Assembly (NCBI GenBank): GCA_964551035.1
Contig: CAZKBK010000009.1
Span: 8,662-72,661, forward strand
Origin: an uncultured Roseivirgaceae bacterium
Lineage (GTDB): Bacteria > Bacteroidota > Bacteroidia > Cytophagales > Cyclobacteriaceae
DNA length: 64,000 bases
Reading direction: 5' to 3'
Within the stretch, counting starts at the first letter, position 1. Each line of letters starts with the position of its first letter. This document shows positions 7,701 through 61,204 of this stretch, piece by piece. The notes beneath the pieces were generated by a model. It did no database searches and was not told where the DNA came from. It was given only the letters and a program-made list of their open reading frames with translations. The position numbers and the translations under genes were made by a program.

Positions 7701-7900
7701 AAAATTTTGAATGACTCCTTATCATTATAGCCGACCCGGGTCGGAAAGCACCTGGATCGGAAATTCGTTCATTCAATAAACAAAAGAAGGGCGTCGAAAG
7801 GTTTCATCATCCCTTGGTTCCACGGTTTCCGGGACACACATTGATGAGGAAACCTTCCGGTGTGGGTAGGTTCAGGCTTGAAAATCTTACCGGGGCGGTA

Positions 7901-11651: not shown

Positions 11652-14600
11652 CTACTTTCTAACTAGCCGCTGAACGGAGCGGTGCGACTGGTTCTTCACT
11701 TCGATGACATAAATTCCTTTTGGAAGGTCGGAAAGGTCAAGTGTCAGGTGGTCTTCGGTCCCGCGGTACGCCGTCGTCCATACGATCCCATTCAACGTGT
11801 TGTAGACCGTTATATCCGTCGGCATATTTGTTCCGCGGATGAATTCAATCCACAAGGCGCCATCGGTTGGGTTGGGATATATTTTCATCCTTTGTGATGC
11901 GGACGATTCGGCGCTGGTCACAAGATCTACCACCAGTTCGTGCGATACCGGCGTTGCGGGCTCATAGAAATCATTACCATTTTGTTCCGCGGTGAGGGTC
12001 GTGATGCCCGGGCCCATGATCGTCACCCTGGTCCCAATCACCTCGGCCACCGCCGGATCACTGCTGGTCAGCGAAACTTCAAGGCCGGAGGTTGCCGTGA
12101 CCTCCAGGGTAAACGGTTCATCAAGGGTAGTCACCGGCGCGGGAGCTTCAAAAGTGATTTCCTGGCTTGCCCTGTGTACGTCAAGCGTTCGGCTTACTGA
12201 CGGCGCGGCTGCGTAGCGTGCGTCCCCCTCCTGGGTGGCCGTGATCGTGGTGGTGCCAACGCCGACAATGGTTACCAGGTTGTCGGCCACCGTAGCCACC
12301 AGCGGGTTGCTGCTCGCATAGACCACGGGAAGCGCCGAAGATGCCGTGGCATTAAGGGAAAAGGGTTCATCTCCGAACGCCTTGTCTGCCAGCGCCTCGA
12401 AGGTGATCGTCTGCGGATCCCTGACCACGAGATCGACGAACACGGCCGGGGCTTCAAAAAAATTCTCATTGCCATTTTGAACGGCCATGATCTGCGTAAC
12501 ACCGGCACCGACAAGCGTAACCGTATTATCGACCACAAAGGCGACCTGCACATCGGTCGAAAAGAACCCCACCGGAAGTCCGGAACTGGAAGTTGCCGAT
12601 AGCTGGAACGGAACATCTGTCGTCAACTTTTCGGGCAAGGGGCTAAATGTTATCGTTTGGCCTGCCTTCTCCACGATGAGCTGGCGGGCACTTTCACTGG
12701 CGGCATCAAAGTTTGCGTCTCCCGGCTGCGCAGCGGTAATGGTGGCAAATCCTGCTTTGTGGATGGAAAGCATGTTCCCCGCAATGGTGGCAACGGCAGG
12801 ATTGCTGCTCTCGTAGGTGACGGGAAGGCCGGAAGACGCTGTGGCGGTAAGTTCCACATCATCCTGACCATAGGTCATGATCTCAAATTCGCCGAAGCTG
12901 ATAGACTGGCTGGCCTTGAATACACTCAGCCCTTGTTGTTCGACGGCATCTTCATAGTTTATGCTCCCGGTCTGCATGGCCGAGATGACCGCCGTCCCTG
13001 CCCCGGTGATCGTCACCATATCGCCCTCCACCGTTGCCACGAGTGGATCACTGCTAGAAAACGAAACAGGCAACCCGGAACTCGAGGTTGCAGAAAGTTG
13101 GAACGCTCCGGCACCGTAGACCACATCTTCGAAGTTGCTGAAGTCAATGTATTGTGTAGCGCGACCCACCGCCAGGATCTGCGCTGCGCTCGTCGGCTCA
13201 AAAGTTCCGTTTCCGGTTTGCCGCGCAGTTATTTCCGTTTCGCCGGCGCCGACGATCGTTACCGTGTTGCCTGAAATCGTGGCTACACTGGTATTGGAAC
13301 TCTCAAAAGTCAGGCTCAGGCCCGAAGTCGTGGTGGCGTCCAGCATGAAAGGGGCATCGCCGTAGATCTTATCTGTCGGCAAAGGTGCAAAGTCTATGAC
13401 CTGCGTCAACTTTTTAACCGTCAGTGTTTGTTCGACCGCGGCGGCGGGCTTGTAATTCGAGTTGCCTGGCTCCGACGCCGTGATCACCGTCGTGCCCGGG
13501 CCCACAATCGACACGGCGTCGCCGGACACGATCGCCACGGAAGTATTGCTGCTGGTGTACGCGACCGGAAGACCGGACGATGATGATGCCGTCAGTACGA
13601 AAGGATCATCATCGATTCTCTTTACTTCCAGTGGACCGAAATTGATCACCTGATCTGCTTTGGATACCGTGAGCGTTTTTTCAACCGGGGAAGCTTCTGC
13701 CCAGAACGCGTTACCCGGTTGCGTAGCGGTAATGATCGTTTCACCTGCGCCCACAAGGGTCACGTTGTTAAGGGTAACCGTGGCCACGTTGGTATTGCTG
13801 CTGGAATACACGATCCCAAGGCCGGACGAGGCTGTGAGGGGAAGCGTGAAATCTGCATCTCCAAAGGTTTTTGGAGCAATGTCGTCAAGGGTAATCGTCT
13901 GTGTGTCCTTGACGCGAAATGCCCGGTCGACATTGGGCGCAGCCAGGTAGTTTGAATTTCCGGCCTGGCTGGCCTTGATACTCACCAGTCCCGTGCCGAC
14001 GATCGTGACGATGTTACCATTGACCGTGACTACATCCGTATTCGAACTTTCGAAAGTCACAAGCAATCCGGAGGAAGCGGTCGCGCTTATTTCAAAATCC
14101 TCGTCGCCAATCACCCGGTCCGGGAGCGGGTCAAACGCAATGGTCTGCGACGCGGGCAGCACGTTAATCAACGCTTCCGCGCGGGCCGAAATCCATGAGC
14201 CAGGGTCGGCAGGTTCAAAGTCGACGGACAGAACCTGGTTGTCACCAACGTTCAGGATCGTTCCGGCCGGAGGGTCATAGGTGAATGTTCCCGGGACTGT
14301 GGTCGTGGCTTTCAACTGTGTGCTGCTCAGCGGTGTACCATAGTTGATATTGTTGAGCGACGGCCATGTGATGACGGGTGTCCCCTTTCCACCGTGGACC
14401 CGCGTCACACGGTTCCGGCCGACATTTCTGTACTGAATGAATTCCCCTACGATTACGACCTTGTCATCCGACTGAATCGCGATAGCATAAACATGCCGGT
14501 TTGGTCCAATGTGGGTATTGAACGCGAAGTCATGCGTACCGTCGGAATACAACCGGGCCACATTCCAGGCACTTCTGCCATTCAGCATGGTAAAATTTCC

Positions 14601-16649
14601 GCCGACGAAAATTTTTCCGTCCTGGTGAATCGTGATGGCTTCGATCGTACCGTTGACACCGGTGCCGACTGAAAATTCGGGGTCGATCGAACCATCGGAA
14701 TGAAGCCGGGCCATCCTGTTCGCCGTTGATCCATCATAGGTCGTGAACGAACCGCCAATGAGTATCCACTGGTCGGGCAGCACCTTAATCTCTTCAATGA
14801 AGTTGTCGGTTCCTAGGCCGACGTCGAACGTCTCGTCGAGTGCGCCGTTAGCATCCAGTCTTGCCAGCCGCGCCCTGGATACGTCGTTGTAGGTGGAGAA
14901 ACTCCCCCCTATCAGCACCCTGCCGTCATCCTGAACTGCCATGGTATGGACGGCTCCGTCCGTCCCGGTGCCAGGGTCAAAAGTTGCGTCAAGGCTCCCG
15001 TCTGCATTGAGCCTGGCGATGCGCTTTCGGGCGACACCGTTGAACGATTGAAACGCCCCGGCCACAAGTATCTTACCGTCCTCCTGCAGCGCGAGGCAAT
15101 AGGCACTGCCATTGAGGCCGGTCCCGGGATCGAACGATGTGTCCAGCGAGCCATCGGCGTGGATGCGCGCAATTCGGTTGCGAGACGTATTGTTGTAAGT
15201 TTGAAAGGTCCCGGCAACGACGATTTTTCCATCGGGTTGGATGGCTATCGACCGGACCTGTCCTGTACCGTCACCGGGATCGAAGGTCTCATCAATTGAG
15301 CCGTCGGCATTCAGGCGCGCAATCCCGTTACGCGCTACACCGTTGTATCCGAAAAAACCTCCGGCGATGATGATCTTTCCGTCGGGCAACAGCTTTGCGT
15401 CGTAGACGGTGCCGCTGGCGCCGTATCCCTGCAAAACGCTCTCGTCCGCGCCGCCGCCCGGGAGGAGGCGTATCAAAGATCTTGCGCTTCTTCCATTGTA
15501 ACTTGTGAAGTTTCCGCCGATCAGTATCCGTTCACTGGCATCAACCCCTATGCATTGCACAGTTTTATTCGGTCCCGAGATGCCCGTACCGGTGTCAAAT
15601 GCAATGTCGATTGAGCCATCGGCATTCAACCTGGCTATGCCGGACAGCGCCGTTCCATTATAATCGGTGAAGGTCCCGCCCACCAGGATCTTGTTGTCTG
15701 CCTGGACGGTGATAGCACGCACAAAGCTGTTGAAGCCCGTTCCGGCCGCGAATGTGTTGTCAATGCTTCCATCTTCGTTGAGGCGCAGAATTCTTCCGTG
15801 CGCGGCTCCATTGAAGTTGTTAAAAGAGCCTCCGATCAGGATTTTTCCGTCGTTCAGTACCTTAATGATGTCGACCGGCTGCGCTGCACCGGAACCGGGG
15901 TCAAACGTTTCATCGATGGTGCCGTCGGTGTTCAACCTCGCCAAGCGTCCTGCGGCAGTCCCGTCATAACTCGTGAAGTATCCACCGATCAGGATCTTTC
16001 CATCGTCCTGTACGGCGACGCCTGTAAGCCGGGCATTTGGCCCTGTTCCGGGCGTGAACGTTTCATCGAGGGAGCCATCCGCATTTAGTCTAACCAGATA
16101 CTTCACCGGAACTTCATTAAACGTTTCGAAATCGCCAGCGATGATGATCTTGCCATCGCCCTGAACGGCGATCGCGCGGATGTAGTTGTCGGCGCTCTGG
16201 CCCGGGTCAAAACTGGGATCAAGGGTGCCGTCGGTATTCAGCCGGGCCATGTTCTTGATGGAGGTTCCGCCGTAGGTATTGAAGAATCCGCCCACAATTA
16301 TTTTGCCGTCGGCCTGCACTACCGCGGCGTCCGGTCCGTCCGATCCGGTAAATCCGTTGGCGAAAGTCGGGTCTCTGGTCCCATCTTCGTTCAGGGCCAC
16401 GACAGCGCCGGTGTTCTTCCCCTGAAATGTGGAAAAATTCCCGAAGATCAGGTGCTTACCCTCCGGCAGCGGAACGATTCCGTAAACATGGTTATTGAAG
16501 CCATCGCCCAGGCCGTCACCCAAATCAGTCGGGTTAAAGGTCTCGTCCAGATTCCCGGCCTCTTGCGCGGAAACGCTGGCGGGAATTTGAGAAACGAAAA
16601 AAATAATGACGGGGCTGAGCAGAAGGGTCTTGATACAGGTTCTTTTCAC
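11652..16649 (-). CDS. Giant T9SS-secreted surface protein: ~14 delta-60/beta-propeller repeats, an MBG-like domain, 9 Big_2-like Ig repeats and a Por/T9SS C-terminal sorting domain
   Basis: About 14 repeats of ~52 aa (RLNADGSLDETFTPGTG..., RLNADGSIDETFDPGDG..., RLNADGSLDATFDPGTG...GGSFSTYNDVSRARLA). One MBG-like module follows (ITWPSLNNINYGTPLSSTQLKATTTVPGTFTYDP). Then come nine ~85-aa repeats (Q.I.F..L....GD.PF.L.ATASSGLPV.Y.SSN..VATV.GN.VTIVG.G...ITA.Q.GN.N). The C-terminus KIYPNPTDGALWIEF...GIYVIEVKNQSHRSVQRLV is a T9SS CTD. There is no ATG at the 5' end. GTG at 16649 gives MKRTCIKTLLLSPVIIFFVSQIPASVSAQE, a signal peptide; TTG at 16700 is the alternative. Confidence 0.9.
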   Translation of the reverse strand: MKRTCIKTLLLSPVIIFFVSQIPASVSAQEAGNLDETFNPTDLGDGLGDGFNNHVYGIVPLPEGKHLIFGNFSTFQGKNTGAVVALNEDGTRDPTFANGFTGSDGPDAAVVQADGKIIVGGFFNTYGGTSIKNMARLNTDGTLDPSFDPGQSADNYIRAIAVQGDGKIIIAGDFETFNEVPVKYLVRLNADGSLDETFTPGTGPNARLTGVAVQDDGKILIGGYFTSYDGTAAGRLARLNTDGTIDETFDPGSGAAQPVDIIKVLNDGKILIGGSFNNFNGAAHGRILRLNEDGSIDNTFAAGTGFNSFVRAITVQADNKILVGGTFTDYNGTALSGIARLNADGSIDIAFDTGTGISGPNKTVQCIGVDASERILIGGNFTSYNGRSARSLIRLLPGGGADESVLQGYGASGTVYDAKLLPDGKIIIAGGFFGYNGVARNGIARLNADGSIDETFDPGDGTGQVRSIAIQPDGKIVVAGTFQTYNNTSRNRIARIHADGSLDTSFDPGTGLNGSAYCLALQEDGKILVAGAFQSFNGVARKRIARLNADGSLDATFDPGTGTDGAVHTMAVQDDGRVLIGGSFSTYNDVSRARLARLDANGALDETFDVGLGTDNFIEEIKVLPDQWILIGGSFTTYDGSTANRMARLHSDGSIDPEFSVGTGVNGTIEAITIHQDGKIFVGGNFTMLNGRSAWNVARLYSDGTHDFAFNTHIGPNRHVYAIAIQSDDKVVIVGEFIQYRNVGRNRVTRVHGGKGTPVITWPSLNNINYGTPLSSTQLKATTTVPGTFTYDPPAGTILNVGDNQVLSVDFEPADPGSWISARAEALINVLPASQTIAFDPLPDRVIGDEDFEISATASSGLLVTFESSNTDVVTVNGNIVTIVGTGLVSIKASQAGNSNYLAAPNVDRAFRVKDTQTITLDDIAPKTFGDADFTLPLTASSGLGIVYSSSNTNVATVTLNNVTLVGAGETIITATQPGNAFWAEASPVEKTLTVSKADQVINFGPLEVKRIDDDPFVLTASSSSGLPVAYTSSNTSVAIVSGDAVSIVGPGTTVITASEPGNSNYKPAAAVEQTLTVKKLTQVIDFAPLPTDKIYGDAPFMLDATTTSGLSLTFESSNTSVATISGNTVTIVGAGETEITARQTGNGTFEPTSAAQILAVGRATQYIDFSNFEDVVYGAGAFQLSATSSSGLPVSFSSSDPLVATVEGDMVTITGAGTAVISAMQTGSINYEDAVEQQGLSVFKASQSISFGEFEIMTYGQDDVELTATASSGLPVTYESSNPAVATIAGNMLSIHKAGFATITAAQPGDANFDAASESARQLIVEKAGQTITFSPLPEKLTTDVPFQLSATSSSGLPVGFFSTDVQVAFVVDNTVTLVGAGVTQIMAVQNGNENFFEAPAVFVDLVVRDPQTITFEALADKAFGDEPFSLNATASSALPVVYASSNPLVATVADNLVTIVGVGTTTITATQEGDARYAAAPSVSRTLDVHRASQEITFEAPAPVTTLDEPFTLEVTATSGLEVSLTSSDPAVAEVIGTRVTIMGPGITTLTAEQNGNDFYEPATPVSHELVVDLVTSAESSASQRMKIYPNPTDGALWIEFIRGTNMPTDITVYNTLNGIVWTTAYRGTEDHLTLDLSDLPKGIYVIEVKNQSHRSVQRLVRK

Positions 16650-16940
16650 AGGACGGGATTTTGCCCAAAGGTATGAAAAGGTGCCCGTCCGCCAAACCAA
16701 AAAAAACTGTCGGGAATGTTACAGCCGAGAGCGTAGCGCAGCGCGCTGCGTGGATCAGGGGAGCCTTGGCCGTTGTGGCGCAATGTCTCGTCACGTTAAC
16801 GACAACCCCAAGCCACAAAAAGGGCGCGTTGCCCATCCTGATCACCCTGCTCTCCGCGCTTTCCCAAAACCCAACCCGGTGGCTAGGTCAAAATCCGCCG
16901 GCATCCCCAAGCAGGATACCCGTCCCTACCTGTGAAACTG

Positions 16941-25138: not shown

Positions 25139-25235
25139 AGTTTGAAGTTTGGCGTTTGGCGTTTTTGGGGACTATATTGAAGCCGGGCTCGCCGTCAACT
25201 CCAAACTAAAAACTCCAAACTCGCAACTCGCAACC
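25139..25235. repeat. Intergenic element with two complementary heptamer-repeat arms flanking a GC-rich core
   Basis: Left arm TTTGAAG-TTTGGCG-TTTGGCG-TTTTTGG. Right arm CCAAACT-AAAAACT-CCAAACT-CGCAACT-CGCAACC, roughly the reverse complement of the left arm. It ends 2 nt before the ATG at 25238. Confidence 0.6.
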
Positions 25236-32900: not shown

Positions 32901-33312
32901 CGGCAACTGGTCAAGTTCCTACTCCCGGTGGCTGGCGACAACCGGTTCCGGCTTCCATGGCCGCGTAATACGCTCGGCGCATTTCACCCGATCGGGAAAC
33001 GGTGAAAAGATCGCGACATGGGCTCCTGAATTGCCACAAGACGGCTTCTATGACCTTTATGTCTACATGATGGGCAAGAACCAGAATGAATTTCGGGGCG
33101 GCGATGGCGACAGCAGGCAGTTCACCTATCACTATGTAGTCAACAATGCCGACGGCACTGACGATATCCGCTACAACATTTCCAACGCGGAGCCGGGCTG
33201 GAATTACCTCGGCTCATACTATTTCGCTAAAAATGGTAGCAGCGTTTCGCTGACCGACGAATGCGAGCTACGAACGGTGTATGCGGATGCGGTCAAATGG
33301 GTCAGGCAGTAG
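29977..33312 (+). CDS. ABC-2-type permease fused to a large extracytoplasmic M1-aminopeptidase-like domain (catalytic motifs degenerate) and a C-terminal beta-sandwich
   Basis: The start overlaps the upstream stop (ATGA). The first ~290 aa are multi-pass membrane. The soluble part shows the M1-like order YPFNRLQFVEVPIHFTAYDK (GAMEN position), DLIRKVFTKQIG (HEXXH position), SEDWPLLNRSIATYL (WLNEG.A.Y position) and AYLGHMLGESNFKTFLYDWV. The C-terminal ~150 aa (GFYDLYVYMMGKNQ...VYADAVKWVRQ) is beta-sandwich-like. Confidence 0.75.
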   Translation: MMSFKNILTIMSFEARVLWRNWFFRIIALLGVGFVGIFNLAVFSELDTPQWHVLANGWILPYASLLMISIPQAAAVIFLATGMIKKDKKLDTNEVFFVRPITNLDYVFGKALALFTLFFLLNLVLLCIPLIIGLTNPSATVTPLAFLIYPLLTTVPAIVFTTGISFLLVTVIRNQPISIVLLVGIAGVQLIYYFDQFSNILDFMAFRLSMLASEITGFVDIGFALWQRGFYLLTGIALLFITAFLLDRLAGHKVAHKATAFVGVALLAVAAFIMVRLWDMRQRPITLREEMVAVNATWANVPNIDIVSHVIDVTWLGDQIASTSEMRVRNNTNRTLDTIYFTLNPGLTVDEMLVNDAPVKINRDLQIVAIDDGVSLPAGGELTVRMKYRGPIRESAAHLDVDQKRYESSNELIMFSLKKKYAFLEPDYVLLTKDVLWYPDTQVGFNRTSARRTRHSFVDFRLTVHAPAGKTPISQGEVVINDGVHQFRPEYPLPQISLVIGDYAKKEITVDGVDYAVFHRPENDFFVRHLDQLADTLGYLIRDVANEYEDAQKLAYPFNRLQFVEVPIHFTAYDKIYDSHQAYLQPETVFWPEEGSHIRQFDFRRQLRDMNRQAARTNQVLTDKQKQANVFNDLIRKVFTKQIGSTWVWDGSDADRADYSLFPNYYDFNSGIVSEDWPLLNRSIATYLRNDKQTLNDYSRNINGISFTEECNNLMRTSSMKEILTGTEFSKISKSVSLKSQYLFAYLGHMLGESNFKTFLYDWVNNHQHELNGYRHFREAIRSRFHLDIDPIIREVYAETSQPAFEILDVQQYEVMDRDRKRYQVLVKARNSGDSDGVIEVRFNTGERAADEDYYAVKVNEEVAQEAPGRLAVIKQGETRLIGFVLDEKPNTITINTIISRNIPSSIVMSVGALSSHDGGLLFDGERVIANERDNNPYEVIVDNEDPGFSTFSPIKPTILKAWLDSRNATDQKYYGNWSSSYSRWLATTGSGFHGRVIRSAHFTRSGNGEKIATWAPELPQDGFYDLYVYMMGKNQNEFRGGDGDSRQFTYHYVVNNADGTDDIRYNISNAEPGWNYLGSYYFAKNGSSVSLTDECELRTVYADAVKWVRQ

Positions 33313-33390
33313 GAGGTACGAATGAGGAGGTACGAATTACGAAGTACGAATTACGAGGTACGAGGTGCGATCGCCCTGTAGGGCGAAATG
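33311..33390. repeat. Heptamer-repeat tract (ACGAnnT x8) plus hairpin TCGCCC-tgta-GGGCGA; the same family as the 59.4-60.6 kb array, in opposite orientation
   Basis: AGGAGGT-ACGAATG-AGGAGGT-ACGAATT-ACGAAGT-ACGAATT-ACGAGGT-ACGAGGT, then GCGATCGCCCTGTAGGGCGA. The reverse complement matches the CCTCGTA / ATTCGTA tracts and the TCGCCCCTACAGGGCGA hairpin of the tandem units. It starts on the stop codon of 29977..33312. Confidence 0.6.
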
Positions 33391-33478
33391 TCGGTAACGA
33401 GATATGGCATAACATGAACGTCTTCACGAAACAACAACCCGATAAAAATTCCACAAGTTCAAAATAAGAATCCCAACG

Positions 33479-45597: not shown

Positions 45598-47040
45598 TTA
45601 AACGCCCTGGCTGACCAGCGCAAACTGGAACTGCGGCCTTCCGCGTTCACCATTTTGCGTCAGCGCCGTGAACTTCAGCTTGTAAATGTTTCCTGCGGAA
45701 TCTTTGATCACGTAAAAGCGGTCTTCCTTGAGAGCAGGTCCCGATCCCGGGCCCCCGCCGGACCTCCAACTGGAACCGATATTGATCTGACTGGTGCCAA
45801 AGGTGACCCCCGCCAGGTCGGCCTCATCAAAGTCTTCGTACGTGCCGGCGGTCGCGGTAAGGAGTTCCGCCGTTTCAGTATCGAAGCGATTCTGGATCAC
45901 CACATCGTTAAAGACGTAGGGCACCGTGAGGCCAGGACCAAAGGCGGTGGTATTCGTAAACACGGTGAAGGCGATATCCCACTTTTCCTTTTTCGGCTCA
46001 ATTTCAACCACACCGGTTTCAAATTTCACGTAGTTGAAGAGGAATTCTTCGTCCCTCGTAATATCGATGGATGTGAAACTGGTGGCGTCGATATCTGCAT
46101 GCTGCAAGGTGTAGTTGTCGCCGTTTCTGATTATACGGACCTTCTTCCAGCCCCGTGGTGTGCCGTCCGGGTGCGCTCCGCGGTTCACGATGAACACGTT
46201 GTTGTCGGACGCCGCTGCCGCGATTTCCGCAATGGCCGTGGCGGACAGGTCTCCGGCGGGATCGTCGATCCAGGACGTCGCCTCCGACACCCATGCCGGC
46301 GGCGGGCCGGAGGTGATCGCGGCAAATACCGCATCCGTGGAAAGCTGTTGCCCCCACCCTGTCGTATCCTCCGCGGTAACGGCGTTAAGATCATTCTTGT
46401 CAAGCGCCCTGGCCATCATCGACGAAGCCGAATTAAGAATCACGCGAAATTCACCCGCTGCCATATAGAAGCCAAGGTCCCAGTCACTCCGATGGACGGA
46501 AGTCTGACGGTTCGCGCTAAGGTCGATAAACACCTTGTTCGGTTGTTCCTGGCCTCCGACATTCGGATCCATCGTCCCCTCGTCGGCAAGTATTTCAGAA
46601 AAACTCACCACGAGCGCACTTCTTTCCCCCGGCACGAGGTCATTGCCCACCGTTGCCAATGTAAATGCGATCGTTTCGTCTCCATCGAGCAGGACATCCT
46701 CCTCCTTGTTGATGTCAAATGAAACCTGCGTTGCTCCCTTCGGCACCGGAATCACGAGCGAATTTCCATCCATGGCCGGGCTGGTCGTGAACTCCGTCTC
46801 GTAGCTGACTCCAACCAATTCCGCCGTAAGGCTAATCTCCGTATCCGTGGACGCTTCCCGCGAAAAAGGGATGTTGACCGTCAGGGTTTGTTCATCCGAA
46901 GCAAAGCCGAGTTCTCCAGATTCAAACTGTACCAGGTTGTCGGGCAGTGGCGGATCTTCATCGCAGCCTGCCAGCATCACGAAGGCAGCGAACGCAAAAA
47001 AAATCGACCAGGGTTTAAATGGAGAAGTTTTGGATTTCAT
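45598..47040 (-). CDS. HmuY-like heme-binding lipoprotein with N-terminal Ig/Calx-like domain
   Basis: Start at the ATG at 47040 (MKSKTSPFKPWSIFFAFAAFVMLAGCDED, lipobox). The C-terminal ~330 aa has the HmuY-like pattern (SDWDLGFYMAAGEFRVILN; KWDIAFTVF; IYKLKFTAL). It is the last gene of a heme-uptake operon, immediately after the TonB-dependent receptor. Confidence 0.65.
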   Translation of the reverse strand: MKSKTSPFKPWSIFFAFAAFVMLAGCDEDPPLPDNLVQFESGELGFASDEQTLTVNIPFSREASTDTEISLTAELVGVSYETEFTTSPAMDGNSLVIPVPKGATQVSFDINKEEDVLLDGDETIAFTLATVGNDLVPGERSALVVSFSEILADEGTMDPNVGGQEQPNKVFIDLSANRQTSVHRSDWDLGFYMAAGEFRVILNSASSMMARALDKNDLNAVTAEDTTGWGQQLSTDAVFAAITSGPPPAWVSEATSWIDDPAGDLSATAIAEIAAAASDNNVFIVNRGAHPDGTPRGWKKVRIIRNGDNYTLQHADIDATSFTSIDITRDEEFLFNYVKFETGVVEIEPKKEKWDIAFTVFTNTTAFGPGLTVPYVFNDVVIQNRFDTETAELLTATAGTYEDFDEADLAGVTFGTSQINIGSSWRSGGGPGSGPALKEDRFYVIKDSAGNIYKLKFTALTQNGERGRPQFQFALVSQGV

Positions 47041-47068
47041 GGTAAGCATGGATTTTATGAGGAACATG

Positions 47069-49081
47069 TTAAGATTTTGTGAATCGAACGTTAAGGGTCA
47101 CAAAGAACGAGCGTCCATAGCCGACGGGTCTGCTGGAGCCCGAGCCGGTGTGCGTGGATGCCCCTGACGCGGAATTGTAGACCTGCGTGACATTGAAGAG
47201 ATTTCTGATCCCGGCGGAAAGTTCCAGGTGTTTCCCTAACGATTTCTGCGCCGTCAGGTCGGCCCAGTGATAGCCATCGGTCTCCACCAACACGATGTCT
47301 TCTCCGGCGGGATCAAGTTCGTACGCAGGTGTCTTTCCCGTGTACTTATAAAACAGCGATACGCTAAATGTTTCATCGACCTGATGCGTCACCGACGTGG
47401 TGATTTCCGGCGACCACGTAAATGCCGGAAGCGTTCCGTTCGCCTCGGTGAGCGAATTATACCGCCCGGTACAACCCAGGCCCGCGCGAAAGTCGGTGTT
47501 GCCGTTGCTGAGCACGGTGTTCAACGTCAGACCTTTGGAGCGGAATTCGTTTATGTTGACGTAGGTGGTCACATTGCTGCCGGGGCGCACGCCGTAGCCG
47601 ATCATATTATCGACATCATTGTAGAACGCCGAAATGACGCCGTTCAAGCGAAGGTTGTTGTCGGTTTCCACCAGCCGCGCATTCCACGATGCGTTAACGG
47701 TGTGAGAGCGTTCGGCTTCAAGATCCGGATTGCCTTCAATGGAGTGGCTGGCATCGAAGAAGTTGAAAAATAGTTCCCTTATCGACGGCGCCCTGAACCC
47801 GCGTCCGTATGAAACTCGGACATCATGGCGGTCATTGATCGTGATCTTTGTGTTCAGGGAAGGAATAACGGGAGGCGCTTCATACACGGAATTTCTGATG
47901 ACGCGAACGCCGGGTCGCAAGCTCAAGGCCCCCAACTTGAGGTCAGCCGAGAGAAACCCCGCATAATCCTGAATGCCATTCGTCCCCTCCTTCAACCGGG
48001 ACCCGCTTCCCGATTCCAGGTTGATGTCGTAGCCGGGCTGAATGCTCACGGCATCGGAGATTCGGTATTGCAGCGCTCCCCGAATGGTCATGCCTGTGAA
48101 TTCATCCGTGTTCTGCAACGCACTGTTGGCCAACGTTTCCCTGCCCGTTTGCCTGTCGACGGCAACGCTTTGGGTTCTGTTCCTGAAGCCGGTGTAGCTT
48201 AACGCGCTGTTAAAGCTGACCTTTTCCGAAAGACTCGTCGTCAACTGAACCTGGTGCATCAACCGCTGCGTGATGTAATTCTTGTCGATTGCCTCGTTGC
48301 CGGCGAATTGCGCGGGGTTGTAGATCTTCTCGTGCAGGTAGTCAGCCCGGTAATAGGCATGCCATCCGTTCTGTTGGTATCCCGCGACAGCGCTGGCCAT
48401 CCACTGCGCCTTGGGGTGCCATGTTTTCTCGCGCCCCGTGGAATCGCCTGTCCATCCGCGAAACGCGTTGTGACTGAGACTTCCCCGGAAGTAAAAAGCG
48501 TTGACCGCGGAAGCGAGGCTGACGCGCTGATTGTGGAGTCCCTTCGACAGTCCATACTCATTTCCTGCCGTCTCTTCCTGGAGAGTCGCCGATACCGCGA
48601 ATTTCTCCTCGACCGATTTTTTTGTGATGATGTTGATCACACCGGCCAGCGCATCGGCGCCGTAGATGACCGCCATGGGTCCCTCGACAATCTCGATCCG
48701 CTCGACGGCGTTTACGTTGAACTGGTTGAGGTTGACCTCGTTGCCGGTGCCCTGTTTCCCGATCACGGGAACGCCGTCGACGAGCACTTTCACGTTTTGA
48801 CCGGGCAGCCCCATCATGGTCAGGTTGGAACCGCCGAGTGCCGGATCCTGCGCGAACCGGATATTTAATTCAGTATTCAACGCATCCTGTAGCCTCGTCG
48901 CTCCCCGGGATTGCAACCGTTCCATCGGAATGGTGCGCACGTTGTACACCGACGCCCGTACCGACTGTGGCTCCACCTCTCCGGTCACGACCACCTCTCT
49001 GAGCTCGTAAAGTTTCAAAGAATCCTGCGCCGCCGTAAACAGCGACGTAAGAAGGAGGATTAAAGCCAGGATGACCTTCAT
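47069..49081 (-). CDS. TonB-dependent outer-membrane receptor (heme/hemoprotein type by context)
   Basis: Signal peptide MKVILALILLLTSLFTAAQD. Plug motifs: LREVVVTGE, IEIVEGPMAVIYGADALAGVINIITK. It has a long beta-barrel and the C-terminal strand FFVTLNVRF. The start lies 2 nt after the hmuS stop. Confidence 0.9.
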   Translation of the reverse strand: MKVILALILLLTSLFTAAQDSLKLYELREVVVTGEVEPQSVRASVYNVRTIPMERLQSRGATRLQDALNTELNIRFAQDPALGGSNLTMMGLPGQNVKVLVDGVPVIGKQGTGNEVNLNQFNVNAVERIEIVEGPMAVIYGADALAGVINIITKKSVEEKFAVSATLQEETAGNEYGLSKGLHNQRVSLASAVNAFYFRGSLSHNAFRGWTGDSTGREKTWHPKAQWMASAVAGYQQNGWHAYYRADYLHEKIYNPAQFAGNEAIDKNYITQRLMHQVQLTTSLSEKVSFNSALSYTGFRNRTQSVAVDRQTGRETLANSALQNTDEFTGMTIRGALQYRISDAVSIQPGYDINLESGSGSRLKEGTNGIQDYAGFLSADLKLGALSLRPGVRVIRNSVYEAPPVIPSLNTKITINDRHDVRVSYGRGFRAPSIRELFFNFFDASHSIEGNPDLEAERSHTVNASWNARLVETDNNLRLNGVISAFYNDVDNMIGYGVRPGSNVTTYVNINEFRSKGLTLNTVLSNGNTDFRAGLGCTGRYNSLTEANGTLPAFTWSPEITTSVTHQVDETFSVSLFYKYTGKTPAYELDPAGEDIVLVETDGYHWADLTAQKSLGKHLELSAGIRNLFNVTQVYNSASGASTHTGSGSSRPVGYGRSFFVTLNVRFTKS

Positions 49082-49082
49082 A

Positions 49083-50162
49083 TCAGATTGCCGGAAGTTC
49101 CTCGACAAGTTTTCGCCAGGGCTCGCGTTCGCTGATGCCGGGTTTACGGAGGCCGAAGAACTGAACGATCATGTTCTTGTCACGGTCAAACGCTTCAACG
49201 GCGGTGACAACGCCATCGGTGGTCGGCTTTTTCACCACCCATACCGTGTCGACGTGATCCTCCCGCAAGTGCATGTTGAAGTCCGGGTCGAGCACATTCA
49301 GCCACGCTTCCATGATCCGGATGGTCTGCACTTTGCCTTGATGGATCTGGATATTGCCGCGATTTCCGGCGAAGATCATGATGGGAAGCTTTTGCGCGGC
49401 GGCGGTATCCAAAAGCACACGCAACGCGCTCTTTTGAATTTCGTAGGTGAACGTCCCGCTGGCAATGCGCACGGCATCGAGGCGATTGACGTCGTGCTTC
49501 CTGATCATTCCGAAGAAATCATGGGTATCCTTCATCGCCGCCCAGTCGGTCAGCAGGGCGTCGCGATCGACCTGATCTATCGCTTTTGTTGTAGGGTCCG
49601 CGATCGGACTTACTTTGACCTGGGCAGACTGATCGTCCGAGGTAAAATCGTGCACAATGCGGTCAAAAGCGTCCTGGTCGCTTCCGGCTTTATGCTCCTG
49701 CGCGCCCTGCAGGTATACCTTGGTGATGGCCGTGCCGGAAGCATCAAAGAACTGGAGGCTTTGCTGCAGACCACGGGGAGTCTGCTGCTTCACGGCGAAG
49801 CCAAACTTCCACGGACGGAAAAATACCCTCGATTCAATGGGGCCAATCACTGTAGCCATGGCGTTGGGGAGCCCGCCCATGATGTCGATCTTCTGAAAGG
49901 GTCCCTTGTGCTCCAGAACGCAACTGTCATTTCGGGTGAGCGCCATCACGCGGCCCAACTCGGGCAGGCGGGCCAAAAGCTTCGTCCAATCGCCATCCAG
50001 GCGCACCGTGTATTCGTTTACGGTCGTGGCCAGCAATTCCGCTTCGCTGCAGCCGATCTCCGCAGCCGCGTCACGTATGCGGATGCCGGGTTTGGCTTTC
50101 TGAACGTCGAGCCACGCCTGCTTTAGCGTCGAAGGGGTATCCAGGGTAGTATTCATATCCAT
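49083..50162 (-). CDS. hmuS: Hemin-degrading/transport factor, HemS/ChuS/HmuS family
   Basis: Duplicated HemS/ChuX fold. The N-terminus is LKQAWLDVQKAKPGIRIRDAAAEIGCSEAELLAT. I prefer the ATG at 50162, 1 nt after the hmuV stop. The ORF also opens at TTG 50180. Confidence 0.85.
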   Translation of the reverse strand: MDMNTTLDTPSTLKQAWLDVQKAKPGIRIRDAAAEIGCSEAELLATTVNEYTVRLDGDWTKLLARLPELGRVMALTRNDSCVLEHKGPFQKIDIMGGLPNAMATVIGPIESRVFFRPWKFGFAVKQQTPRGLQQSLQFFDASGTAITKVYLQGAQEHKAGSDQDAFDRIVHDFTSDDQSAQVKVSPIADPTTKAIDQVDRDALLTDWAAMKDTHDFFGMIRKHDVNRLDAVRIASGTFTYEIQKSALRVLLDTAAAQKLPIMIFAGNRGNIQIHQGKVQTIRIMEAWLNVLDPDFNMHLREDHVDTVWVVKKPTTDGVVTAVEAFDRDKNMIVQFFGLRKPGISEREPWRKLVEELPAI

Positions 50163-50163
50163 G

Positions 50164-50973
50164 TTATTTGGTAATGGCAATTTGAGTCAAAGGATGTGAC
50201 GTTTCTTCGGGTATGATGAACGGACACCGGCTGCAGGGATCGTGATGAATGCTCACCTTACAACAAAACGTCTTTTCTATGTTGTCTTTCGTAAATACAT
50301 CGATGGCCGGACCCGAGCCCACCAGTTCCCCGTTGTTCATCATGCAGATACTGTCCGAAAATTGTGCGGCGAGATTCAGATCGTGAACGATCGCGAGTAC
50401 GCCAATATTCCTTGAACGGATGTGCTTCACGATGCGGAACATGGACTGTTGTTGTGCGATGTCCATGCTTGAAGTCGGTTCGTCGAGGAGGATGTACCGC
50501 GGGAAGACGGTTTCTTCCCACACCTGCGCCAACACCCGGGCAAGCTGGACACGCTGCTTTTCGCCACCCGAAAGGGTCAGGTAATTCCGGTCGGCAAAGA
50601 GACCCGTCCCGGTTACCTCGATTACTTCATCGATGATATTGAGGTTCTCTGCCCGCGTGGTGTGATGCGCCTGCCGGGAAAGGGCGATCACTTCCCTGGC
50701 GGTGAAAGCAAACTGGAGGCCTGACTGCTGCGCCATCACGGCCCGGATACGCGACAGTTCACGGGCGTTGTACTTGCCGGCGGGTTTGCCATTTATACGG
50801 ACGGCGCCTGAATAGACCCTTTGCTCGTTGCTCATGATTTTCAGGAGCGAGCTTTTACCTGCCCCATTCGGGCCGACCACCGCGGTGAGCTGTCCCGGTT
50901 TGACCGCGAGGTTGATCTTTCGAATGATCTGTTTCGTTCCGACGCTATGCGATATGTCGACGGCTTCGTACAT
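50164..50973 (-). CDS. hmuV: Heme/iron-siderophore ABC transporter ATP-binding protein
   Basis: Walker A GPNGAGKSSLLK, signature LSGGEKQRVQLARVL, Walker B ILLDEPTSSMD, H-loop IVHDLNLA. Confidence 0.9.
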   Translation of the reverse strand: MYEAVDISHSVGTKQIIRKINLAVKPGQLTAVVGPNGAGKSSLLKIMSNEQRVYSGAVRINGKPAGKYNARELSRIRAVMAQQSGLQFAFTAREVIALSRQAHHTTRAENLNIIDEVIEVTGTGLFADRNYLTLSGGEKQRVQLARVLAQVWEETVFPRYILLDEPTSSMDIAQQQSMFRIVKHIRSRNIGVLAIVHDLNLAAQFSDSICMMNNGELVGSGPAIDVFTKDNIEKTFCCKVSIHHDPCSRCPFIIPEETSHPLTQIAITK

Positions 50974-52043
50974 CAGATCTCATGCTTTTGTTTAGCCTTC
51001 AGCAACAGGGCGATAAAAAACGGCGCACCAATAAGGGCCGTGACCACGCCGATGGGCATTTCCGCCGGGCTCACCATGGTGCGCGCGATCAGGTCGGCGA
51101 TCAGCAGCAGAAGCGCGCCGCCCAGCGCCGAAGCCGGAAGCACCAGGCTGTTGTCGGCGTGGAACATCGTCCGGATCACGTGGGGAACGATAAGGCCGAT
51201 GAAACCAATGATCCCTGCCAGGGAGACGCTTACGCCCACGGCAAGCGCAGAAAGGAGGACCATCACCCGCTTGACGCGCTCGACGTTTACACCCAGGTGG
51301 TAGGCGTCGGATTCGCCCAACGACAACGCATTCAGGGGCCGGGCAAACAGCAGCAAGGCACAAGTCGACAATAGCAGTACGGGTGCGGAAAGGCTAAGCT
51401 TCTCCCAGGTGGCTCCGCCCAGATCCCCCAGCGTCCAGAACATGAAGGTGCTGAGCTGGTTTTCGTCCGCGTAAAAAATGGCCAGGCCGATTAGCGCCCC
51501 GGTAAGGGCATTGACCGCCACGCCGATCAGCACCAGCATGGCGATGTGGGTGCGGCCGGCGCTCATGCTCAAACGAAGGACGAGAAAGGTGGCAATGCTG
51601 CCTCCCGCGAACGCGAACAGGGAGATAAAAGAATTTGAAATCCATAGTGGCAGGGACGAAAGCAAGGTCGCTCCAAAAACGATTGCCAGAACGACCGCCG
51701 CGGCTGCACCGCCGGAGACGCCGATCAGGCTGGGCTCGACCAACGGGTTCCGGAATAATCCCTGAAGGGATGCTCCGCCGATTCCCAACGCCGAACCGAT
51801 TAACAACGTCATGACTACACGGGGCGCGCGTATCGTCGTCAACACCGCCGCGTGTGTTTCGTCGACGGCGGCGCCACTGAACATGCCGATCTGCTTAAGC
51901 ACGATGACAATGGCATCCGGAATGGGTATGTGAACGGCCCCGACCGTGAGCGAGACTACGGCGGTCAATACCAGCAGGCCCCCCATGCCGAGTAGGATCA
52001 GTGCGTTTCGGTAGCTTCGTACGGGTAACGCGAGCGCCAACAT
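50973..52043 (-). CDS. hmuU: FecCD-family heme/iron ABC permease
   Basis: 356 aa, ~9-10 TM helices, FecCD signatures (RAPRVVMTLLIGSALGIGGASLQGLFRNPLVEPSLIGVSGGA; C-terminal IGVVTALIGAPFFIALLLK). Confidence 0.9.
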   Translation of the reverse strand: MLALALPVRSYRNALILLGMGGLLVLTAVVSLTVGAVHIPIPDAIVIVLKQIGMFSGAAVDETHAAVLTTIRAPRVVMTLLIGSALGIGGASLQGLFRNPLVEPSLIGVSGGAAAAVVLAIVFGATLLSSLPLWISNSFISLFAFAGGSIATFLVLRLSMSAGRTHIAMLVLIGVAVNALTGALIGLAIFYADENQLSTFMFWTLGDLGGATWEKLSLSAPVLLLSTCALLLFARPLNALSLGESDAYHLGVNVERVKRVMVLLSALAVGVSVSLAGIIGFIGLIVPHVIRTMFHADNSLVLPASALGGALLLLIADLIARTMVSPAEMPIGVVTALIGAPFFIALLLKAKQKHEI

Positions 52044-52044
52044 T

Positions 52045-52899
52045 TTACCTGCCTGCTATTTTATCCGCCAACTCGGGATGGAGCTGCACCGCCAGCTCTT
52101 TTACCGCTTCGCCAAAACGGGGCCCGAAATTGGTGAGCTTCAAACTCTCCATGGCAATGATTTGTTTCTTCTTCCCCGCGGTAGTGAGCGACATGCCGGG
52201 AAGCTTTAACGCGCCGGCTATGCCACCGAGGCTTTCAAACCCGGTCGAGACCATGAGCACATAATCGGGGTTGGCGCTGATGAGCGCCTCGGCATTCAAC
52301 GGCTTGTAGGCCGTGATCCCGATGAAGGCATTTTGCGCGCCAGCGTAGGCGAGTATTTCCGCGAAGCTGTTCTTTCCTCCCGCGCTGACAGTGGCTGTGC
52401 CGCGGTTGTAGATGCAGGCCACGGTGGGCGCGATGGTCTTGCCCTCGAGCAGCCCGCGTACATCGGCAAGCGCTTGTTCAATGTTGGCGATAAGGGAGTC
52501 TCCCTCCTTTCGACGATTCAACGGAGTAGCTATCTGCCGGATGAGCGCCTTCGTGCCCTCAAAGTTCAGTGTGCGGTCGATCACGAGCACCTCTACCGAG
52601 GTCCCGGACAACTGCTCCAGGACAACCTGATCGACGTAATCCTTTTCGGCGATAACCAGCGTGGGCCTTAGACTGAGAATGCCCTCTGCATTGATTCCAC
52701 TCCTGTAGCCAATGGAAGGAAGATCCTGAACTTCCGCCGGGTAAAGACTGGTGCGGTCGGTGCCAACGAGTTTGTCACAATCGCCCAGCGCACAAACCGT
52801 TTCCGTGATGGCGCTGCCGGCAGTGACGATGCGCATTTCATGCTGCCCGGCGCAAACGCCGGCGATGGCGATAAAGGCTAACGTTAATAACTTTCTCAT
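52045..52899 (-). CDS. hmuT: Heme ABC transporter periplasmic substrate-binding protein (cluster A-2 PBP)
   Basis: Signal peptide MRKLLTLAFIAIAGVCAG. It also has RIVTAGSAITETVCALG, PTLVIAEKD and the two-lobe PBP layout. It is the first gene of the operon. Confidence 0.9.
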   Translation of the reverse strand: MRKLLTLAFIAIAGVCAGQHEMRIVTAGSAITETVCALGDCDKLVGTDRTSLYPAEVQDLPSIGYRSGINAEGILSLRPTLVIAEKDYVDQVVLEQLSGTSVEVLVIDRTLNFEGTKALIRQIATPLNRRKEGDSLIANIEQALADVRGLLEGKTIAPTVACIYNRGTATVSAGGKNSFAEILAYAGAQNAFIGITAYKPLNAEALISANPDYVLMVSTGFESLGGIAGALKLPGMSLTTAGKKKQIIAMESLKLTNFGPRFGEAVKELAVQLHPELADKIAGR

Positions 52900-58777: not shown

Positions 58778-59353
58778 TCATACCCTCAGAGAGCCGCGAA
58801 ATCCGCGGGCGGCATAGTACGATTCCGCGCCGTTGTGATAGACGAAGACGTGGTCGTAGCGGCGGTCACAAAAAAGCGCGCCGCCGCGTTGCCGGATTTC
58901 CGATGGCGTCACGATCCAACTCGAGGTCTTCAGGTCGAAATTTCCAAGTGTCTGCAGCTCGCGATACTGCGCCTCCGTCAACAGCGCAATCCCCATCTCC
59001 TCCGCCATCGCCACGGCGCTGTTTTTCGGTTTGTGCTCTTTACGGGACTTGAGCGCCTCGTGATCGTAACAAATGCTCCTGCGGCCATTGGGGCTTTCGG
59101 GCGAACAATCGTAAAAAACGTATTCGCCCGTCTTCTTGTCATAACCGACCACGTCCGGCTCGCCGCCTGTGCTTTCCATTTCGTTGAGCGACCACAACTT
59201 CGCCTTGCTGGCCATCAGCTTCGACTGCACTTCACCCCACGCCACACCCTTGTGCCGGTTCTTGTTCTTTTCAAAACGGGTCTTTAGCTTATCCAGAAGC
59301 TCTTCACGCTGTGCCGACGACAGCTCTTTTTTTGATGTCGTTTTCTTTGCCAT
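58778..59353 (-). CDS. DUF4256-domain protein
   Basis: 191 aa. KNKNRHKGVAWGEVQSKL, LNEMESTGGEPDVVGYD and FYDCSPESPNGRRSICYD match my recollection of DUF4256. Confidence 0.7.
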   Translation of the reverse strand: MAKKTTSKKELSSAQREELLDKLKTRFEKNKNRHKGVAWGEVQSKLMASKAKLWSLNEMESTGGEPDVVGYDKKTGEYVFYDCSPESPNGRRSICYDHEALKSRKEHKPKNSAVAMAEEMGIALLTEAQYRELQTLGNFDLKTSSWIVTPSEIRQRGGALFCDRRYDHVFVYHNGAESYYAARGFRGSLRV

Positions 59354-59367
59354 AATTAAAGTTTATT

Positions 59368-60635
59368 GTCTCTACAATATTATCCGACTCTTTCCATCGT
59401 ACCTCGTACCTTGATCAACCCTTCAACCATCCACAACGCCCAACCTTCAACTCAACCCCGCTCCTCTCATTCGTAATTCGTCATTCGTAACTCGTCATTC
59501 GGTCCACGCGTGTGCATTGCGTGCCATGAACGATGATCGCCGGCATCGTCAATTGTCTGTGGCACGCGTGACCGCGGTGGTAGGTTGCCTTGTGCTACCA
59601 ACACATCGCCCTTACAGGGCAACGCCACCGGCCAGGGTGTTGTCTCTACAATATTACCTCACACTTTCCATCGTACCTCGTACCTCCCTCCTCGTACCTT
59701 GATCAACCCCGCAACCATCCACAACGCCCAACCTCCAATTCAGCCCCTCCATTCGTCATTCGTCATTCGTAACTCGTCATTCGGTCCTCGCGTGTGCATG
59801 GCGTGCCATGAGCGATGATCGCCGGCATCGTCAATTATCCGTGGCACGCGTGACCACGGTGGTAGGTTGCCTTGTGCTACCAACACATCGCCCCTACAGG
59901 GCGACGCCACCGGCCAGGGTGTTGTCTCTACAATATTACCTCACACTTTCCATCGTACCTCGTACCTCCCTCCTCGTACCTCGATACGCCCTTCAACATC
60001 CATAAAGCTCACTCTCCAATTCAACCCCGCTCCATCCATTCGCAATTCGTCATTCGTAACTCGTAATTTGGTCCAGGCGTGTGCATGGCGTGCCATGAAC
60101 GATGATCGCCTGCATCATCAATTACCTGTGGCACGCGTGACCACGGTGGCAGGTTGCCTTGTGCTACCAACACATCGCCCTTACAGGGCGACGCCACCGG
60201 CCAGGGTGTTGTCTCTACAATATTATCCGAATCTTTCCATCGTACCTCGTACCTCCCTCCTCGTACCTTGATCAACCCTTCAACCATCCACAACGCCCAG
60301 CCTTCAACTCAACCCCGCTCCTCTCATTCGTAATTCGTAACTCGTCATTCGGTCCACGCGTGTGCTTTGCGTGCCATGAGCGATGATCGCCTGCATCATC
60401 AATTACCTGTGGCACGCGTGACCACGGTGGTAGGTTGCCTTGTGCTACCAACACATCGCCCCTACAGGGCGACGCCACCGGCCAGGGTGTTGTCTCTACA
60501 ATATTACCTCACACTTTCCATCGTACCTCGTACCTCCCTCCTCGTACCTTGATCAACCCTGCAACCATCCACAACGCTCAACCTTCAATTCAACCCCGCT
60601 CCTCCCATTCGTCATTCGTAACTCGTCATTCGTCA
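59368..60635. repeat. Tandem array of 4.5 copies of a 274-287 bp structured unit
   Basis: The unit landmark GTCTCTACAATATTA occurs at 59368, 59642, 59924, 60211 and 60492. Each unit has a CCTCGTA heptamer tract, a CA-rich spacer, an (A/C)ATTCGT heptamer tract and a ~140-bp GC-rich core with nested inverted repeats. Copies are roughly 90% identical by eye. Confidence 0.9.
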
Positions 60636-61204
60636 ATGCCTTTCCCGTCCAAAATCTGCCTCACATATTTCTCCACCCTCGCCTCCCGTGTTTTCGCCTG
60701 CTTCGCCGAAGAGAAGTGAAATAAGTATGCCCGCTGACGGCCCGGCGTTAGCGCATAAAAGGCCGTTCGCAACGCTGGCATTTTTTTCAGCTTGTTTTGA
60801 AATTCTTCGGGGATCTTGAATTCAGAAGTCTTTTTGAAATTGACCTTTAACCCCGATTCCTCCACTTCAACGGCCTCGTAAATATACTTCTTCAGCACAC
60901 GTTTCAGCTTCACAACCTCACCGACACTCGTGAACCGCACCTGCCGCGCCGACTGCACGTTCTCCGTCTGCTGGATCAGGATCTTCCCGGGGTCCTTTAA
61001 TAACGCTCCCTTGAAGAAGAGCAGCGCACAGTATTCTTTGAACCCGTGCATCAACACGATATTCTTTTTTTCAAACGTGTAACAAGGCTGTCCCCACTTC
61101 AATTCCTCCACCAGGTCACAACCAAGGACGATCGTACGCAATTCCGCAAAGGCTTCCTGCCACTTCCCGGTCTTATCAAAAAACCAATCGACTTTGGGGT
61201 TCAT
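60626..61204 (-). CDS. YdeI/OmpD-associated-family protein (DUF1801 plus YdeI domains)
   Basis: Start at the ATG at 61204 (MNPKVDWFFDKTGKWQEAFAELRTIVL), overlapping the upstream stop (ATGA). The C-terminus is TPGRQRAYLFHFSSAKQAKTREARVEKYVRQIL. Confidence 0.8.
   Translation of the reverse strand: MNPKVDWFFDKTGKWQEAFAELRTIVLGCDLVEELKWGQPCYTFEKKNIVLMHGFKEYCALLFFKGALLKDPGKILIQQTENVQSARQVRFTSVGEVVKLKRVLKKYIYEAVEVEESGLKVNFKKTSEFKIPEEFQNKLKKMPALRTAFYALTPGRQRAYLFHFSSAKQAKTREARVEKYVRQILDGKGIDE

Follow-up and report, generated by a model that had tools for sequence, protein, structure and literature searches.

A 281-bp intergenic tandem array in an uncultured Roseivirgaceae bacterium, probably a lineage-specific mosaic of heptamer tracts and tagged palindromes

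What is a 1.27-kb block of tandem repeats doing between two genes that most relatives keep almost side by side? The question arises from the window analysed here, the whole 64,000-nucleotide stretch of contig CAZKBK010000009.1 from an uncultured Roseivirgaceae bacterium, in which about 4.5 copies of a 281-bp non-coding unit (the array; Table 1) separate a YdeI-like gene from a DUF4256 gene. A preliminary description, made from the letters alone, had offered three readings of this array: tandem non-coding RNA genes, a mosaic akin to the bacterial interspersed mosaic elements (BIMEs), or a stack of miniature inverted-repeat transposable elements (MITEs). The second fits best, given the modular unit, the differing sequencing depths of its modules and the dispersal of the palindrome in the right part of its core. 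We consider it probable that the array is a lineage-specific intergenic minisatellite, a mosaic resembling BIMEs and clusters of repetitive extragenic palindromic (REP) sequences, in which dispersed heptamer tracts and REP-like palindromes have been amplified head to tail.

Tandem Repeats Finder (TRF) reported the array at 59402–60635, with a period of 281, 4.3 copies, 89% matches and a score of 1979. A 15-mer, GTCTCTACAATATTA, occurs exactly five times against a chance expectation of about 0.03, and it opens each of the four units and the partial fifth one, at the five boundaries first described; the core motifs occur four times each. The aligned units are 274, 282, 287 and 281 nt long and are followed by a partial unit of 144 nt, and their pairwise identities range from 88.6 to 95.9%. 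As first described, this is not a CRISPR (clustered regularly interspaced short palindromic repeats) array, since the whole 281-bp period is repeated at 89–96% identity, as opposed to short repeats with unique spacers. It is a head-to-tail repeat within the 10–300 bp unit range of minisatellites, or variable-number tandem repeats. Short-read contigs break or collapse inside the array. In independent short-read soil metagenomes of the Logan collection, contigs matching unit 2 or unit 4 exactly have a depth of 9–14× as compared to about 9× for the flanks; unit-specific contigs at roughly single-copy depth indicate that the array is not an assembly artefact. A match at 44733 (CACCCTTTCCATCGTA) was judged to be due to chance.

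The unit is made of three modules: B, the boundary followed by a C-rich spacer; H, a heptamer tract; and K, a 140-nt GC-rich palindrome cluster. The inverted repeats named earlier are present with perfect arms of 6–8 nt (GCGTGCCA/TGGCACGC, CGGTGG/CCACCG, TGGTAG/CTACCA and TCGCCC/GGGCGA), and so are both heptamer tracts, which TRF found as period-7 rows inside every unit. When Logan contigs were laid on one unit, depth differed strongly between modules, with values of about 1100 for the ATTCGT heptamers, about 200 for the CCTCGTA heptamers, 60–80 in the left core and 140–170 in the right core, when compared to about 9 for single-copy sequence; the right core is thus about twice as deep as the left. 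Its excess suggests some 15–19 palindrome copies in the genome, to judge from contig depth. Dozens of contigs have the heptamer tract alone in common and then run into unrelated flanks. Two contigs of single-copy depth rearrange the modules: one fuses the heptamer tract straight to the REP-like hairpin (59774 to 59884), and the other carries a core with an internal deletion (59539 to 59867/60435). Modules that turn up independently and in other combinations mark the unit as a mosaic.

Heptanucleotide repeats in intergenic DNA have been described as a class that includes the long simple sequence repeats (LSSRs; attributed to Mrazek et al. 2007 by PMC4679880), the short tandemly repeated repetitive (STRR) sequences and the TAACTGA repeats of Beggiatoaceae, Cyanobacteria and Bacteroidetes; the placement of such repeats at start and stop codons is likewise covered (PMC4679880). 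The tracts of the array are ordinary members of this class: at least three tandem 7-nt intergenic units recur at many loci, including two more in the window (25147–25234 and 33308–33370), and TACGAAT, the other strand of ATTCGT, is tandem in many Bacteroidota loci, usually beside other heptamer tracts. They share with the cyanobacterial STRRs, LSSRs and TAACTGA repeats the tandem 7-nt units adjoining start or stop codons, the occurrence of several heptamers in one spacer and a copy number that varies by whole heptamers. In contrast to these, the tracts of the array are modules within a higher-order 281-bp repeat and adjoin palindromes. The first of the two other loci, directly upstream of an ATG at 25238, has heptamer tracts in inverted orientation, GTTTGGC (2.6 copies) and AACTCCA/AACTCGC (about 6), on either side of a spacer of about 35 nt.

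A tagged palindrome, CTACC(R)ACAyN-TCGCCCC-N3-5-GGGGCGA, makes up the right part of the core. A covariance model of it, R1, found exactly five copies in the window, the four of the array (34–46 bits, E 4e-9 to 2e-6) and one solo relative, in which a heptamer tract, (GGTACGA/ATTACGA)x8, starts right after a TAG stop codon (33310–33312) and is followed by the palindrome. Its orientation relative to the flanking genes is that of the array, and the two have in common not the heptamers alone, as the hairpin TCGCCC-loop-GGGCGA and its flank (GTTACCGACATT as compared to GCTACCAACACA) are also shared. Elsewhere, R1 gave 41 matches in 19 carrier or Bacteroidota loci and one match in 1.6 Mb of other loci. 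From these counts we conclude that the tagged-palindrome family is real and that, in the manner of REP families, its distribution is patchy.

The array and solo copies served to build a degenerate pattern; run on all GTDB species representatives, it matched 15 times, where about three chance matches are estimated from its degeneracy and the size of the collection. Ten of the 15 fall in three genomes, namely Chitinophaga vietnamensis BD 01 (five loci), a metagenome-assembled genome (MAG) of the Chlorobiota (three) and a Saprospiraceae MAG (two); a further single match lies in an Ignavibacteriaceae MAG. Doublets in the carrier genomes read hairpin-TATGTTGGTAG-12 nt-CTACCAACATA-hairpin, and the core of the array has this layout as well, reading ...CCACGGTGGTAG-11 nt-CTACCAACACA-hairpin (...CCACGG-TGGTAG-11 nt-CTACCAACACA-TCGCCCC...). 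In C. vietnamensis BD 01 the tagged palindrome itself forms a 51-bp tandem array of at least 7.3 copies (locus L305, 1–372), 44 nt downstream of a minus-strand gene; this array is truncated where the fetched stretch begins and may be longer. The Saprospiraceae MAG has two homologous elements of about 175 nt with the tagged palindrome as terminal inverted repeats (L291, 3551–3729; L301, 3663–3839). These two elements also have a 17-bp central hairpin and look like a MITE or a REPIN (a REP doublet forming a hairpin).

Core 20/21-mers, a 23-mer of hairpin 1 and a lineage-specific REP pattern had no match in the GTDB representatives, JGI metagenome contigs or IMG/VR, and blastn of the unit against plasmids returned nothing; hence no further full copies were available for covariation analysis. 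When the unit or core was compared by blastn with 2.5 Mb of fetched loci, heptamer tracts alone were recovered.

How close does this bring the array to known repeats? Like REPs, BIMEs and REPINs, the family consists of a short GC-rich palindrome with a conserved unpaired tag at one end, here TCGCCCC-N3-5-GGGGCGA with its conserved 5' flank, a 20–40 nt imperfect palindrome repeated in extragenic DNA, for the most part a short way downstream of a gene. Copies stand alone, pair up as inverted doublets a short spacer apart, or form tandem clusters with flanking DNA; large clusters of REPs reiterated in tandem with their flanking DNA are documented (PMC3733652). The distribution of the family is lineage-specific and patchy. 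It differs from REPs in its tag, CTACC(R)ACAy on the 5' side of the hairpin: GTAG lies 3' on the other strand and 6–7 nt away, and there is no unpaired GTAG (GTRG) directly at the 5' end of the stem, as in the GTAG superfamily. Moreover, copy number appears modest here, and most of the amplified 281-bp unit is not REP sequence. The CGTC-tagged REPs reported in Bacteroidetes and Chlorobi have a CGTC, TGTC or CCTC tag, an 8–9 bp stem starting with A-T, a 4–5 nt loop and a CCA tail (PMC3733652). The likeness to these appears partial: some copies of our palindrome have extended stems starting with AT (ATATCGCCCC/GGGGCGATAT), whereas the flank is C(G/A)AC and not CGTC, loops are 3–5 nt and there is no CCA tail. 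BIMEs are mosaics of REPs in alternating orientation with conserved linker motifs between them; a doublet, hairpin-GGTAG-11/12 nt-CTACC-hairpin, is found in the array and in C. vietnamensis, and in the array its two hairpins have no relation to each other and REP sequence forms the smaller part of the unit.

As in minisatellites, for example the one within a MITE of P. gingivalis (PMC4596501), the units are non-coding, intergenic and head to tail, with a partial unit at one end and variants that recombination shuffles; the difference is that the unit is itself a composite of dispersed micro-repeats. Non-coding tandem arrays of large period are not rare: those with a period of at least 60 nt were present in 12 of the fetched loci, which total 2.5 Mb, and in five of the 12 the period exceeded 100 nt and the copies numbered three or more; comparable ones are 190 bp × 3.9 in L213, an uncultured Chitinophagaceae MAG, and 107 bp × 4 in L068.

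Variation between units bears on how the array arose. Unit lengths differ mainly by 14-nt and 7-nt indels in the heptamer tracts, plus 1-nt indels, and whole-heptamer indels indicate slippage. Variant sites support each of the three ways to split the four units two and two (7, 3 and 2 sites), a pattern that no simple duplication tree fits and that points to unequal crossing-over or gene conversion. In the 75-nt stretch that runs from the REP-like palindrome through the unit boundary, 2/75 sites vary as compared to 42/191 elsewhere (Fisher p = 4e-5). We read this as local homogenisation, because the diverged core copy outside the array described below is not conserved in the same stretch; the feature nevertheless keeps a functional cassette of promoter-like box and hairpin as a rival. 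In the history we propose, the palindromes would have arrived by insertion, REP/REPIN-type (possibly dependent on a Y1 transposase) or other, beside heptamer tracts where the YdeI-like gene has its 3' end. Two directly repeated B-H segments may then have recombined, or replication may have slipped between them, so that the K-B-H block was duplicated; unequal crossing-over and gene conversion would afterwards have expanded and partly homogenised the array.

Several observations weigh against this account. The left half of the core, with the GCGTGCCA hairpin, has no relative outside the source organism. The tag differs from those of the described REP superfamilies, in which 5'-GTAG or CGTC adjoins the stem. 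No REP-associated tyrosine transposase (RAYT) or other transposase could be linked to the palindrome from the 64 kb of the source genome, the other carriers being 8-kb pieces whose open reading frames (ORFs) were not screened. Finally, the uniformity of the 75-nt stretch could reflect function rather than homogenisation.

Is the array transcribed into a structured RNA? The unit had been called highly structured, which folding did not bear out: the whole unit folds no better than dinucleotide shuffles (z = -0.48 on the plus and +0.67 on the minus strand), and the 132-nt core only mildly better (z -1.3 to -1.5 on the plus and -0.8 to -2.4 on the minus strand). Over the window nothing in Rfam 15 reached gathering score, and over 59200–60800 there was no match even at E<=10. 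Among the four cores there are 15 variable sites, three of them inside proposed stems, all single transitions and none compensated; with four array copies and one diverged copy, the power of this test is low. That diverged core copy, from another place in the same metagenome, is a 154-nt contig, about 86% identical and of depth 13 and 10 in two runs. It has GGTAGG changed to GGGGGAT and CCACCG to CCGCAG with unchanged partners, so that two stems (GGTAG/CTACC and CGGTGG/CCACCG) are broken, and it retains and even extends the TCGCCCC/GGGGCGA hairpin. The G-U wobble in ATC(G/A)TC does form on the plus strand only, as had been pointed out; the strand inference drawn from it is cancelled, because GG(T/C)AG and GGGC(G/A)A wobble on the minus strand only. 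A search for RNA runs covering the locus gave one candidate run of unknown type, with about 2× coverage of the flanks only. Compensatory substitutions and stability beyond composition, the marks of a structured non-coding RNA, were not found in these analyses. With no Rfam match, weak fold scores, no compensation, contradictory wobbles and two stems lost in the diverged copy, the suggestion of a tandem non-coding RNA array is not upheld, and nothing tested supports a structured RNA gene here.

The setting of the array matters for the remaining explanations. Relatives of the two flanking genes have at most 74–79% amino-acid identity and are spread across many phyla, so that they allow no more than a loose, Bacteroidota-like placement. 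About 50 fetched loci have the YdeI-like gene next to the DUF4256 gene on the same strand, in either order and mostly 9–90 nt apart, which suggests that the two are co-transcribed; in the window the gap is 1272 nt. The repeat starts 12–14 nt upstream of the DUF4256 ATG (59353). At the other end the terminal heptamers do supply the last two residues and the stop of the YdeI-like protein (TGA at 60626–60628), whose length and C terminus are normal (...GKGIDE* as compared to ...GKGLDD* in homologues). It had been argued that the DUF4256 promoter must lie inside a unit. This does not follow from a position in which genes are usually 9–90 nt apart, and read-through into DUF4256 would be at least as plausible, going by how tightly the two genes are coupled in relatives. 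The boundary 15-mer reads TAATATTG on the minus strand, and the likeness claimed to the Bacteroidota -7 box TAnnTTTG holds as a weak resemblance; it has one mismatch and no -33 element before it, and TAnnTTTG boxes precede only 3/51 ORFs of the window. We therefore set the box aside as a weak candidate. A sigma-70 promoter and terminator scan found nothing inside the array.

Other relatives have other inserts at this junction. In L213 the orthologous gap contains a 9-mer repeat, (GGTTGACAG)x16, at 5587–5728; the 190-bp array of that locus, which has a GC-rich hairpin, is separate (7215–7953), about 1.5 kb beyond the gap. Two Chitinophagaceae MAGs (L220 and L227) have an ORF of about 115 aa at the junction that resembles a four-helix bundle and is bracketed by inverted heptamer tracts (AATTGTT... 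and ...ATTAACA), giving it the look of a small heptamer-flanked cassette, and further relatives have small membrane ORFs there. These inserts have no sequence relationship, and the junction seems to be permissive and not dedicated to a single selected insert.

Against this background, small-RNA genes in tandem appear quite unlikely. Each unit would use the TAATATTG box on the minus strand as promoter, and the RNA would start near AGAGACAACACC and end at a TCGCCCU-GUA-GGGGCGA hairpin followed by UGUGUUGG, or else be a longer RNA over the whole core. It speaks for such genes that the putative promoter-hairpin cassette, boundary plus REP-like segment, is the most uniform part of the unit (the 2/75 variable sites noted above), that the spacing from box to first hairpin resembles that from box to DUF4256 ATG, and that 2/3 stem variants are G-U-compatible on the minus strand. 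Comparable units, each with a hairpin and repeated in one intergenic region, are known from the arrays of NsiR1 in Nostoc and LhrC in Listeria; the present array differs from these in that no promoter/terminator pair emerged from the analyses made, nor any evidence of conservation, covariation or expression. The missing Rfam family, the weak fold z-scores and the lack of compensatory changes count against small RNAs, as do the diverged extra-array copy, unconserved in the cassette segment and with its two broken stems, the mismatched and isolated box (3/51 ORFs, no -33 element) and the empty terminator scan. Independent MITE insertions, each into the previous copy, could be suggested by the 175-nt Saprospiraceae elements with their inverted terminal tagged palindromes, and yet we regard such a stack as very improbable: the identical 15-nt junction recurs five times in perfect register, a partial end unit is what tandem duplication predicts, and the units abut without terminal inverted repeats or target-site duplications. 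Hardly credible is a coding origin, whether as a degenerate protein repeat or as several small-protein genes. There are minus-strand ORFs of 53–68 aa over each core and a 134-aa plus-strand ORF; however, 3/4 unit lengths are not multiples of three, ORF ends vary between units, at least 9 of about 51 aligned codons encode different residues across the four copies, with no sign of purifying selection, and a profile of the minus-strand peptides found no homologue among 5.8 billion proteins.

A domesticated cis-regulatory insulator also has to be weighed, and we hold it to be unlikely. The array would terminate or attenuate the YdeI operon transcript and supply a dedicated promoter for DUF4256, with array length or heptamer number tuning expression in the manner of a contingency locus. 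Its placement is suggestive, exactly between two normally coupled genes, beginning 12–14 nt from an ATG and ending on a stop codon; heptamer copy number differs between units, and the junction of relatives has other repeats or inserts (the 9-mer of L213, the heptamer-flanked ORFs of L220 and L227). That those inserts are unrelated in sequence argues for a permissive site over a selected function, and the scan of the array gave no canonical terminator or promoter. The sole discordant contig, L009, in which unit-5 B-H is joined to a unit-1-like core, was considered as a polymorphism of the array and is possibly a k-mer chimera, because a 37-nt stretch identical between units exceeds the assembly word size, taken as k=31.

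On the preferred reading, that of an amplified mosaic, the array most likely has a passive or modulatory effect, much as REP/BIME clusters do. Read on the sense (minus) strand, it would give the YdeI operon transcript as many as 16 additional GC-rich hairpins in its 3' region. These could attenuate or stabilise that transcript and uncouple DUF4256 from its upstream partner, and DUF4256 might then be expressed via read-through or a weak promoter in the last unit.

Table 1. Positions in the window of the array, its units and modules, the solo relative and the flanking genes
Feature	Position	Strand	Basis and remarks
Whole tandem array	59366–60635		Layout B-H-(K-B-H)x4; TRF, repeat families D1/D2/D4, alignment A1
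Unit 1, 274 nt	59368–59641		Two CCTCGTA heptamers fewer, one ATTCGTC heptamer more
Unit 2, 282 nt	59642–59923		Alignment, boundary 15-mer
Unit 3, 287 nt	59924–60210		Most diverged; 16 private variant sites
Unit 4, 281 nt	60211–60491		Alignment, boundary 15-mer
Partial unit 5, B and H only	60492–60635		Final heptamers supply the ...D E codons and stop of the minus-strand YdeI-like gene
Spacer B, unit 2	59642–59749	+	45% C, 7% G on the plus strand; contains TCGTACC/CCTCGTA heptamers; begins with the invariant GTCTCTACAATATTA
TCGTACC/CCTCGTA tract, unit 2	59671–59699	+	TRF period-7 rows
TCGTACC/CCTCGTA tracts, other units	59397–59411, 59953–59983, 60240–60268, 60521–60549	+	TRF
H, (C/A)ATTCGT tract, unit 2	59750–59783	+	TRF; minus strand reads TACGAAT/GACGAAT
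H, (C/A)ATTCGT tracts, other units	59467–59501, 60038–60068, 60326–60351, 60606–60635	+	TRF
Palindrome cluster K, unit 2	59784–59923		Inverted repeats I2, I11, I13, I14, I16; folds
Palindrome clusters K, other units	59502–59641, 60071–60210, 60352–60491		Inverted repeats, folds
Left hairpin of K, unit 2	59801–59849		GCGTGCCA...TGGCACGC around GATGAT...ATCGTC
REP-like tagged palindrome, unit 2	59875–59917	+	TGCTACCAACACA-TCGCCCC-TAC-AGGGCGA; covariance model R1
REP-like tagged palindrome, other array copies	59593–59635, 60162–60204, 60443–60485	+	R1
Solo relative	33308–33399	-	Heptamer tract and REP-like palindrome (33358–33399); R1 37 bits, E 4e-7
DUF4256 (PF14066), downstream flanking gene	58778–59353	-	ATG at 59353
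YdeI-like (DUF1801 and OmdA), upstream flanking gene	60626–61204	-	Last gene of an HTH_20-AHSA1-DoxX_2-YdeI cluster

Two further features of the window lie apart from the array. A minus-strand ORF of 1682 aa (11652–16700) has internal coding repeats with periods of 153 nt (51 aa) and about 250 nt, a layout that probably makes it a repeat-domain surface protein. A minus-strand cluster of the haem-uptake type (45598–52899) comprises a TonB-dependent receptor, HemS/ChuX, an ABC ATPase, a FecCD permease and a periplasmic binding protein; its Pfam labels were taken from a matching Logan contig.

As for what the locus means, the novelty lies in an unusual tag and an under-described phylum and stays within known kinds of bacterial repeat. 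A bolder version, to which we give little credence, would make the tagged palindrome and heptamer tracts an undescribed REP-like mobile family of Bacteroidota/Chlorobiota, with its own non-GTAG tag and a dedicated single-strand transposase, the array being a product of active amplification and the 75-nt cassette being transcribed as a small RNA from each unit. For annotation, the array is a composite of heptamers and REP-like palindromes, so that an entry as a new non-coding RNA family would be inappropriate. Of modest wider value is that Chitinophagales and Chlorobiota/Ignavibacteria have a family of tagged palindromes whose tag is non-canonical; to our knowledge, GTAG-type REPs are undescribed in these groups. 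Besides, the conserved YdeI-like/DUF4256 junction, which repeatedly gains different repeats or inserts by lineage, could be a natural test bed for operon coupling.

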